DNA from: an uncultured Fibrobacteraceae bacterium
Lineage (GTDB): Bacteria; Krumholzibacteriota; Krumholzibacteriia; LZORAL124-64-63
Length of the DNA stretch: 60,776 nt
Assembly: GCA_964414055.1 (NCBI GenBank)
Contig: CAYPVD010000001.1
Coordinates: forward strand, 1 to 60,776
Reading direction: 5' to 3'
Position 1 is the first letter of the stretch. Each line of letters begins with the position of its first letter. Of the stretch, positions 46,791-48,157 are shown piece by piece. Both the position numbers and the translations under genes were made by a program. The notes under the pieces are model-generated. The model saw nothing but the letters and a program-made list of their open reading frames with translations. It made no database searches and was not told the origin of the DNA.

Positions 46791-47162
46791 ATGGCGACCC
46801 GACCGAGCAAGGATCTGGAAGTCTTCGACAACCCCAACCCCGAGCGGGACTACGAGATCGAGTTCGACTGCCCGGAGTTCACCTGCCTGTGCCCCTTGAC
46901 CGGCCAGCCCGACTTCGCCCATTTCAGGATCACCTACGTGCCCGACAAGCTGTGCGTGGAATTGAAGTCCCTGAAGCTCTACCTGTGGTCCTACCGTGAC
47001 GAGGGAGCCTTTCACGAGAAGGTCACCAACCGGATCCTGGACGACCTCGTCGCCGCGGTCCAGCCCCGGCGAATGGACGTGCGCGGGGAATGGTTCGTGC
47101 GCGGGGGCATCACCACCTACGTGACCGTCACCTACAGATCCGGGGACAGGGACGGGGCTTAA
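46791..47162 (+). CDS. queF: NADPH-dependent 7-cyano-7-deazaguanine (preQ0) reductase, unimodular type
   Basis: Motifs [14 protein letters not shown] (catalytic Cys) and [13 protein letters not shown]. The protein is 123 aa. Confidence 0.93.
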
Positions 47163-48157
47163 CCAAGGACCACGGGCACCGTCCTGCCGCAACCGGGGCA
47201 GATGGGCCTTCCCTGCAATCTGGAATCCGCCCGCATGCCCACCCGCTCGATCAGGACCGTGCCGCAATCGGGACAGACGGTGTCGCGGCCCTTGCCGACC
47301 GCGGCATTGCCGAGATACACCCACGGCAGACGACGAACGGCGAGGTCCAGGGCCCGCAGGAGGGTCTGCGGCGGCGTGGGCGGGGCATCCATGCGCCAGG
47401 CCGGGAAATAGGCGCTGAAATGCAGGGGAATCTCGGAATCCAGGTCGGCCACGAAATCCACCAGGGCGATGATCCCCTCGTCATCGTCGTTGTAGCCGGG
47501 AATCAACAGGTTGGTCAGTTCCAGGTGGACCCCCGCGGCGTGGAATTGGCGGATCGCCGCCAGCACCGGCTCCAGACGGGCCTTGCAGATCCGGCGGTAG
47601 AAGCGGTCATCCATAGCCTTGAGATCGATGTTGGCGGCATCGATCAACGGCAACAGCTCGGCCAGTGGTTCCGGATTAAGGAAGCCGTTGGTCACCAGGA
47701 CGTTTTTCAGTCCCTTCCGGTGGGCCAGGCGGGCCGTATCGCGCACGAACTCGAACCACACCAGCGGTTCGCTGTAGGTGTAGGCGATCCCCACGCTGCC
47801 GGCCCGCAGGGCCGCGTCCACCAGGGCCTCGGGGGAAGTATCGCTGGCGGGGGTCTCGCGCCCCTGGCTGATGGACCAGTTCTGACAGAACAGGCAATGG
47901 AGATTGCAGCCGACCGCCGCCACCGAAAGGATGTCCCGCCCGGGATGGAAATGGTACAGGGGCTTCTTCTCGAGGGGATCGACGGCCACCGACACGATCT
48001 GTCCGTAGGACAGCAGGACCATGGTCCCATCGTGGTTGGCGCGGGATCCGCAGGGCCCGTCCCGGCCCGGCCTCAGGCGGCACCCGATGGGGCACAGATC
48101 GCAGGCCACCTGCCCGTTGGGCAAGGAATGCCAGTAGGCGGCGGGAACGGTCATCAT
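47159..48157 (-). CDS. AmmeMemoRadiSam-system-type radical SAM enzyme (PFL-activase-like)
   Basis: Blocks are the N-terminal [13 protein letters not shown], then [14 protein letters not shown], the [14 protein letters not shown] cluster, and a C-terminal CPDCG...CPGCG ribbon. The ATG overlaps the queG stop. Confidence 0.8.

Follow-up and report, generated by a model that had tools for sequence, protein, structure and literature searches.

Introduction

AMMECR1 and Memo proteins are conserved from archaea to humans and have been linked to human disease. In prokaryotes, they are the partners of a radical S-adenosylmethionine (SAM) enzyme in the AmmeMemoRadiSam system, the components of which are described by the NCBIfam models TIGR04337 (AmrS, the radical SAM enzyme), TIGR04336 (AmrB, Memo-like), and TIGR04335 (AmrA, AMMECR1-like). 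We know of no substrate or reaction that has been assigned to the prokaryotic system, so that placing a protein in it names a family rather than a function. Here we describe an amrS gene on a 60,776-nucleotide (nt) stretch of DNA, referred to below as the window, which comprises positions 1 to 60,776 of the forward strand of contig CAYPVD010000001.1 (contig C1) in the metagenome-derived assembly GCA_964414055.1 of an uncultured Fibrobacteraceae bacterium (GTDB lineage Krumholzibacteriota; Krumholzibacteriia; LZORAL124-64-63). The assembly is fragmented (306 contigs) and 90.6% complete. The gene (positions 47159 to 48157, minus strand) lies between queG and queF, and the original prediction, made from the DNA of the window, saw in it an orphan AmmeMemoRadiSam enzyme whose embedding between two queuosine genes pointed to a role related to tRNA or 7-deazaguanine.

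Two lines of published work bear on such a role. Balaji and Aravind predicted in 2007 that AMMECR1, with radical SAM and dioxygenase partners, takes part in an uncharacterised RNA base modification (PMC2034487), and this prediction, which is not an experimental result, was repeated elsewhere (PMC4075521). RaSEA is a radical SAM enzyme that acts with ArcS on a 7-deazaguanine base in tRNA (PMC11298593). No report of a link between amrS and queG was found in the literature searched, where the few papers that name the system do so in passing.

Results and Discussion

The amrS gene of the window probably belongs to an AmmeMemoRadiSam system whose genes are dispersed in the genome, and has been inherited as part of a queG-amrS operon in a single family of the Krumholzibacteriota. 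This reading draws on the observed family membership, the fold, the presence of partners elsewhere in the genome, matching copy numbers, and the distribution of the linkage to queG. AmrS would be the cytoplasmic radical SAM component of the dispersed system. From what is known of the family, a [4Fe-4S] cluster on C84, C88, and C91 would cleave S-adenosylmethionine to give a 5'-deoxyadenosyl radical, the core of the enzyme resembling that of the activating enzyme of pyruvate formate-lyase (PFL), and AmrS would then act on its substrate together with AmrB and AmrA.

Family membership and fold of AmrS

As judged from its sequence, the 332-amino-acid product of amrS is a genuine member of the AmmeMemoRadiSam radical SAM family. 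The open reading frame (ORF) scored 327.7 bits against TIGR04337 (cut-off, 220 bits; E value, 7.2e-98), with residues 7 to 328 of 332 covered, and 87.9 bits against the Pfam Radical_SAM domain. All of the motifs that the original prediction had quoted for this 332-residue protein, including CPGCG, are in the translation. The cysteines form an N-terminal cluster (C19, C22, C26, and C36), the radical SAM motif C84-x3-C88-x2-C91, and a C-terminal ribbon (C295, C298, C320, and C323), so that AmrS has the N-terminal Cys cluster, the CxxxCxxC motif, and the C-terminal double CxxC ribbon of the AmmeMemoRadiSam system. In an alignment of 107 homologues, the cysteines of the radical SAM motif and of the ribbon were invariant, and the four of the N-terminal cluster were at least 90% conserved.

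The AlphaFold2 model of AmrS was very confident (pLDDT, 96.1; pTM, 0.94). No AmrS-family member was among the PDB matches found by sequence search or by fold search. The closest PDB fold was that of the Escherichia coli PFL-activating enzyme (3C8F; Foldseek E value, 1.7e-16; target-normalised TM score, 0.80; 21% identity), and the remaining radical SAM enzymes ranked far below it. AmrS and PflA (3C8F, 3CB8, and 8FO0) have the partial TIM-barrel radical SAM core in common, but AmrS has about 60 additional N-terminal residues, which include four cysteines, and a zinc-ribbon-like C-terminal tail. The PFL-activating enzyme family TIGR02493 was also the second-best NCBIfam family for the ORF, with 69.6 bits versus a cut-off of 231.75 bits, and TIGR02494 reached 55.7 bits versus a cut-off of 174.35 bits. 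A search with PF02901 and PF01228 found no glycyl-radical enzyme in the 90.6%-complete assembly, which argues that AmrS is no conventional activase. With scores far under the cut-offs and a genome without a glycyl-radical enzyme match, a PFL-type activase with a known partner, which the original prediction had put forward as the alternative that would overturn it, was ruled out.

Two radical SAM enzymes of 7-deazaguanine metabolism bear a looser resemblance to AmrS. QueE is an enzyme of the queuosine pathway and, like AmrS, a member of the radical SAM superfamily. However, Bacillus subtilis QueE (5TH5) ranked only 47th in the fold search (query-normalised TM score, 0.45), and none of the known queuosine enzyme families (QueC, QueD, QueE, QueF, QueG, QueH, QueA, and Tgt) was among the 25 NCBIfam matches of the amrS ORF. 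Thus, AmrS is not a QueE variant. The likeness to RaSEA is one of concept only: RaSEA acts on a tRNA 7-deazaguanine base in a complex with ArcS, a partner from the same pathway (PMC11298593), but its base is preQ0-lysine at position 15 of archaeal tRNA, and no RaSEA model was among the 25 NCBIfam matches of AmrS.

Memo and AMMECR1 genes elsewhere in the genome

The classical adjacency of amrS to amrA and amrB does not occur at this locus, where neither an AMMECR1 nor a Memo gene was found in the 60.8-kb window, as the original prediction had noted. However, in the host genome as a whole, AMMECR1, full Memo, and amrS genes are each present in two copies. On contig C55, a Memo gene (positions 1953 to 2834; 182.6 bits) and an AMMECR1 gene (positions 2827 to 3396; 174.9 bits) form an overlapping pair; its neighbours are a NUDIX gene on one side and an aminotransferase gene on the other, and no radical SAM gene is close by. 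On contig C28, a second amrS adjoins a Memo-AMMECR1 fusion, which makes a second complete system. Scores against TIGR04335 and TIGR04336 were 167.9 and 221.3 bits, respectively, for C55 and 162.5 and 240.6 bits for C28, all above the cut-offs. The term orphan therefore fits the position of the gene in the window but not its genome, in which the Memo and AMMECR1 genes of C55 and C28 rule out true orphan status. The partners of AmrS in the host would be the overlapping pair on C55, and we infer both that AmrS works with this unlinked AmrB/AmrA pair and the chemistry proposed for it.

The second system (C28, positions 8868 to 11662) has signal-like N termini on both of its proteins. In its AmrS, about 90 residues that include a twin-arginine-like motif (SRREFLRKAAKYG...) form an N-terminal extension, and the adjacent Memo-AMMECR1 fusion begins with a signal-peptide-like segment. 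The extension looks conserved, because the second amrS copies in 11 relatives are open frames of 424 to 470 amino acids. It would be odd for a radical SAM enzyme to be exported, given its need for SAM and a reductant. A third, weak Memo-like protein of 401 amino acids (Pfam Memo, 38.6 bits over about 160 residues) is encoded at positions 370 to 1575 of contig C183, beside a DUF7901 protein with type IX secretion system (T9SS) sorting. Many relatives have weak Memo-like genes of this kind, one of which, in G016, is directly behind the second amrS.

Copy numbers and co-occurrence in relatives

The locus was compared with those of 24 relatives, from 19 genera, of the same Krumholzibacteriota family as the host, in which genes were taken from plain ORF calls. 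Each of the 24 genomes had an amrS of the queG-linked type (58 to 82% identity), and each also had AMMECR1-like (TIGR04335) and Memo-like (TIGR04336) genes, in numbers that track the amrS copies. The possibility, raised with the original prediction, that related genomes do without AMMECR1 and Memo was thus not borne out. A stand-alone Memo-AMMECR1 pair could be read from the coordinates in 21 of the 24 relatives; two assemblies were too fragmented to judge. Ten relatives (G003, G007, G011, G013, G015, G018, G019, G021, G022, and G024) had the queG-linked amrS as their only copy, together with a single Memo-AMMECR1 pair, and relatives with two amrS genes mostly had two Memo/AMMECR1 sets, the radical SAM copy number tracking the number of sets.

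A similar pattern was seen among 40 relatives from the phylum, in which amrS presence was scored as an amrS-like match at an E value of ≤1e-20. Four of the five genomes without such a match (G029, G035, G038, and G039) also lacked both partners, the exception being G037. A protein from another phylum (P0187) is a fusion of radical SAM, AMMECR1, and Memo domains with a length of 1,095 amino acids, and is 44% identical to the window AmrS over the matched part. The partners elsewhere in the genome, the tracking of copy numbers, and the triple fusion make a dispersed system the simplest reading. The window amrS nonetheless differs from the AmmeMemoRadiSam system as described in that it is not beside its partners and is coupled to queG in one Krumholzibacteriota family.

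Translational coupling of amrS to queG

Directly upstream of amrS, in the same operon, is a divergent queG-like epoxyqueuosine reductase gene (positions 48154 to 49269, minus strand; 371 amino acids; TIGR00276, Pfam QueG_DUF1730 and Fer4_16). The two genes overlap in the sequence ATGA (positions 48154 to 48157, minus strand). The minus strand reads ATGATG from 48157 to 48152, with the first amrS ATG at 48157 to 48155 and a second at 48154 to 48152, and the queG TGA (48156 to 48154) overlaps the amrS start. An AGGAGG hexamer within the 3' end of queG (positions 48162 to 48167, minus strand) resembles a Shine-Dalgarno sequence and may serve as one; it is spaced 4 nt from the first ATG and 7 nt from the second. 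Base by base, these details agree with the stop-on-start overlap described in the original prediction and with its proposal that the two genes are cotranslated. On the other side, queF (positions 46791 to 47162, plus strand; type II preQ1 synthase, 123 amino acids; TIGR03139, 182.9 bits versus a cut-off of 86.9 bits) is convergent with amrS. The stop codons of the two genes, TAA at 47161 to 47159 (minus strand) and TAA at 47160 to 47162 (plus strand), share the tetranucleotide TTAA at 47159 to 47162, also as had been described. Scans of the window for promoters and terminators gave one match each, no more than expected from shuffled sequence.

The adjacency recurs in relatives, a check that had been proposed together with the original prediction. 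queG was directly upstream of amrS in 23 of the 24 family members, with queG on another contig in the exception, G011, and queF was convergent and within 1.5 kb downstream of amrS in 22. The 4-nt overlap of amrS and queG was found at 18 of 24 junctions, that of the host included; the others had spacings of -1, -1, -7, +13, +17, and +289 nt. The TTAA overlap with queF was less general (5 of 23 genomes), the rest having gaps of 6 to 816 nt and, in one case, a larger overlap. The junction architecture, like the family membership of AmrS, is not attributable to chance.

One possible explanation for the coupling is that AmrS is a dedicated helper of the divergent QueG, in its reductive activation or in the maturation of its cobalamin or Fe-S cofactor, independently of AmrA and AmrB. 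Translational coupling suggests that the two proteins are made in similar amounts, and the core of AmrS is that of an activating enzyme, which acts on a protein partner. The QueG of the window scored 195.9 bits against TIGR00276, just short of the 200-bit cut-off, in an HMM (hidden Markov model) match that comes in two pieces. It matches B. subtilis QueG (5D08; E value, 1e-28) in an alignment that stops at residue 340 of the 437-residue B. subtilis chain, with the C-terminal part of the solved enzyme unmatched, and relatives are named by NCBI only as DUF1730 domain-containing proteins. However, most bacteria run QueG without AmrS, as did the E. coli and B. subtilis controls, which have QueG and no AmrS-family member over the cut-off. 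In G011, queG and amrS are both intact on different contigs. A helper function would also leave the stand-alone AmrB/AmrA pair without a radical SAM partner in the ten single-copy genomes. To our knowledge, QueG carries no glycyl radical or comparable modification. It therefore seems very unlikely that AmrS is a QueG helper.

The rest of the queuosine pathway of the host appears ordinary and scattered, with tgt and queA on contig C79 and queC on contig C9. No QueH was found in the host genome, which makes the queG-like gene the sole candidate for an epoxyqueuosine reductase there. Also considered was an additional epoxyqueuosine reductase, which would leave the queG-like gene available for a different function; it was set aside for the same reason.

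The gene block around queG and amrS

A third queuosine-themed gene, for a QTMAN-like (DUF3524 plus GT1) glycosyltransferase (positions 42123 to 43328, minus strand; Pfam QTMAN_N, 204.9 bits), lies 3.5 kb away. Around queG and amrS, the gene order is conserved over a block of about 15 to 20 kb that also holds unrelated genes: at 9 to 15 of the 16 larger family loci, the genes around amrS were those for an alpha/beta hydrolase, a HAD protein, the QTMAN-like protein, an S8 protease, queF, queG, and NMO-like and YgjP-like proteins. The QTMAN-like gene was kept near queF in 15 of the 16 loci, and the gene for the protease, an unrelated member of the block, was present in 14. Where the protease is absent, in G014, the QTMAN-like gene, queF, amrS, and queG are contiguous. 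The QTMAN/GTDC1-like glycosyltransferase hints at glycosylated queuosine in bacteria, and the gene is near queF or queG only in the host family.

It is conceivable that AmrS, with or without AmrA and AmrB, takes part in queuosine-related or other tRNA base modification, perhaps at a stage before or after QueG and with the epoxyqueuosine or queuosine of position 34 as its substrate, in which case amrS, queF, and the QTMAN-like gene would belong to one queuosine island. The conserved stop-on-start coupling would fit such a role, as would the closeness of queF and the QTMAN-like gene (within 7 kb at 15 of 16 loci of the family), the contiguity of the four genes in G014, the divergence of QueG in exactly the host family, the published predictions of RNA base modification by AMMECR1 with its partners (PMC2034487 and PMC4075521), and the precedent of RaSEA and ArcS (PMC11298593). 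However, the block also keeps unrelated genes, and overlapping junctions are locally common, with an overlap of 4 nt for the QTMAN-like and HAD genes and of 1 nt for the HAD and alpha/beta hydrolase genes. A search with QueG and AmrS joined returned single-domain proteins and one radical SAM/AMMECR1/Memo fusion, and no QueG-AmrS fusion protein, although such a search relies on shared words and the negative is a weak one. Conversely, QueG, Tgt, and the QTMAN-like gene occur in the four phylum relatives without Amr genes (G029, G035, G038, and G039). These observations, together with the distribution outside the family described below, make participation of AmrS in tRNA base modification unlikely.

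Distribution of the linkage outside the family

The linkage of amrS to queG was not found beyond the host family. In five other families of the phylum (f3, f4, f5, f7, and f9), none of 13 amrS loci had queG nearby, and eight loci from f4, f5, and f9 had neither queG nor Amr partners within about 6 kb. The sampled genomes of f3 and f7 carry an amrS of the window clade and had no QueG or QueF. The QTMAN-like gene is widespread in the phylum (145 of 208 genomes) but was not near queF or queG in any of 15 loci from other families. In those families, queG and queF are some 25 kb from each other or not on the same contig. On these grounds, the idea that the phylum inherited an ancestral queuosine island was ruled out.

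Outside the phylum, the best 80 amrS loci of 600 arbitrary candidates, drawn from one genome per prokaryotic species, were inspected with flanks of up to 6 kb. These came from many bacterial and archaeal phyla, and their AmrS proteins were 38 to 55% identical to that of the window. None of the 80 loci had queG, queF, or a QTMAN-like gene nearby, and no queuosine genes were among 256 neighbouring ORFs scanned with Pfam, in which AMMECR1, LigB, and Memo were among the few recurring families; GT9, BacA, ApbE, and others were also tallied. An AMMECR1 homologue, a Memo homologue, or both lay within the flank at 17 loci and neither at the other 63, so a solitary amrS is common. Similarly, no amrS was beside two QueG proteins from outside the Krumholzibacteriota that were among the top matches to the window QueG.

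In a maximum-likelihood tree, the queG-linked amrS sequences formed a single clade (support, 99), nested in a larger group with sequences from Verrucomicrobiota, Lentisphaerota, Bacillota, Thermotogota, Bacteroidota, and others. The second amrS of the host, on C28, was in the other major clade, as was the amrS of f5, the best match in that family, which is transcribed divergently beside Memo and AMMECR1 genes. The difference in clade rules out orthology of the window amrS with this f5 gene beside amrB and amrA. Monophyly of the queG-linked sequences, with no linkage found outside the family, fits a single capture of amrS in the family ancestor. amrS would thus have been placed behind queG once, in the ancestor of this Krumholzibacteriota family, and inherited since then as a stop-on-start queG-amrS operon convergent with queF. 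The coupling would give coexpression with queG but is most likely inherited operon structure rather than the sign of a shared pathway.

Neighbours in other lineages raise the question of a different substrate. The nearest amrS relatives by identity within the phylum, those of f3 and f7 (loci L035 to L037), are directly behind a polyprenyl synthetase gene in the conserved string polyprenyl synthetase, amrS, rsfS, argS, and neighbours outside the phylum include BacA (3), GT9 heptosyltransferase (4), and SurA-like genes (3). Burroughs et al. (2019) reportedly linked Memo to the modification of nucleotide bases and isoprenoids. It might be proposed from this that AmrS acts on an isoprenoid or envelope-related substrate, the second setting put forward in the literature for Memo/AMMECR1 systems, and that its position beside queG is without functional meaning. 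However, the neighbour counts are small raw tallies, the genes downstream in f3 and f7, rsfS and argS, are related to translation, and no isoprenoid gene was seen among the annotated genes around the window amrS. The chances of an isoprenoid or envelope-related substrate thus appear slim.

Observations at odds with a dispersed system

Several observations weigh against the interpretation of AmrS as part of a dispersed system with an incidental tie to queG. G001, of the same genus as the host, has lost the AMMECR1 gene of the stand-alone pair and kept amrS; within positions 122000 to 127000 of its contig C9, the aminotransferase gene comes immediately after the stand-alone Memo gene, whereas the second, fused system is retained. 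Likewise, f3 and f7 have an amrS of the window clade without a dedicated stand-alone Memo/AMMECR1 pair, their sole Memo and AMMECR1 being a fusion beside the other amrS copy. The proposed functional pairing of AmrS with unlinked Memo and AMMECR1 is read from their co-occurrence. The 4-nt overlap has persisted at 18 of 24 junctions across 19 genera while identity fell to 58% for amrS and 49% for QueG. The QueG proteins of the host family are divergent, with about 196 to 218 bits on TIGR00276 versus 293 to 398 bits in sister families, which would fit a changed partnership. Finally, amrS has as many as three queuosine-themed neighbours (queF, queG, and the QTMAN-like gene) in the surrounding 7 kb.

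A dispersed AmmeMemoRadiSam system nevertheless remains the reading that we favour. The original prediction was to fall if AMMECR1 and Memo homologues were present elsewhere in the genome and the queG linkage was not conserved in relatives; the homologues are present, and the linkage is conserved. Because that linkage is limited to one family and sits in a block with unrelated genes, the argument from embedding to a role in queuosine or tRNA metabolism is weak, all the more as it was not found in the five other families sampled or at the 80 loci outside the phylum.

Other genes of the window

The QTMAN-like gene is the first of an overlapping operon with a HAD hydrolase gene (positions 41293 to 42126) and an alpha/beta hydrolase gene (positions 40406 to 41293). 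Between it and queF is the gene for a secreted S8 subtilase with a T9SS sorting tail (positions 43516 to 46710, plus strand; Pfam Peptidase_S8, 150.3 bits; FlgD_ig; Por_Secre_tail). Beyond queG, positions 49390 to 53121 encode a heptahaem cytochrome c, a GT39 PMT-like protein, and a GT2 protein, ahead of genes for a major facilitator superfamily protein and the NMO-like protein. This segment was found only in the host and in G003, of the same genus, and looks like an insertion into the conserved block, because the NMO-like gene is nearer queG in most relatives.

Implications

The label of orphan that was given to this amrS needs correction, because solitary amrS genes are common and the partners are here encoded elsewhere. 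Any genomic association that can be reproduced offers a possible entry to the reaction of the AMMECR1/Memo/radical SAM system. The tie to queG is genuine and strongly conserved, but only in one bacterial family and inside a generally conserved gene order. It therefore offers a cheap, testable hypothesis, that amrS affects the queuosine status of tRNA, rather than evidence of a new pathway, and is a modest lead. It is quite unlikely, but conceivable, that AmrS has been drawn into queuosine metabolism in this family. Produced together with QueG, it would then use radical chemistry to alter the tRNA base, queuosine or epoxyqueuosine, which the neighbouring QTMAN-like protein might afterwards glycosylate. 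If this were true, the family would make a bacterial hypermodified queuosine, and the AMMECR1/Memo/radical SAM system, for which RNA base modification is a prediction of long standing, would have its first substrate.

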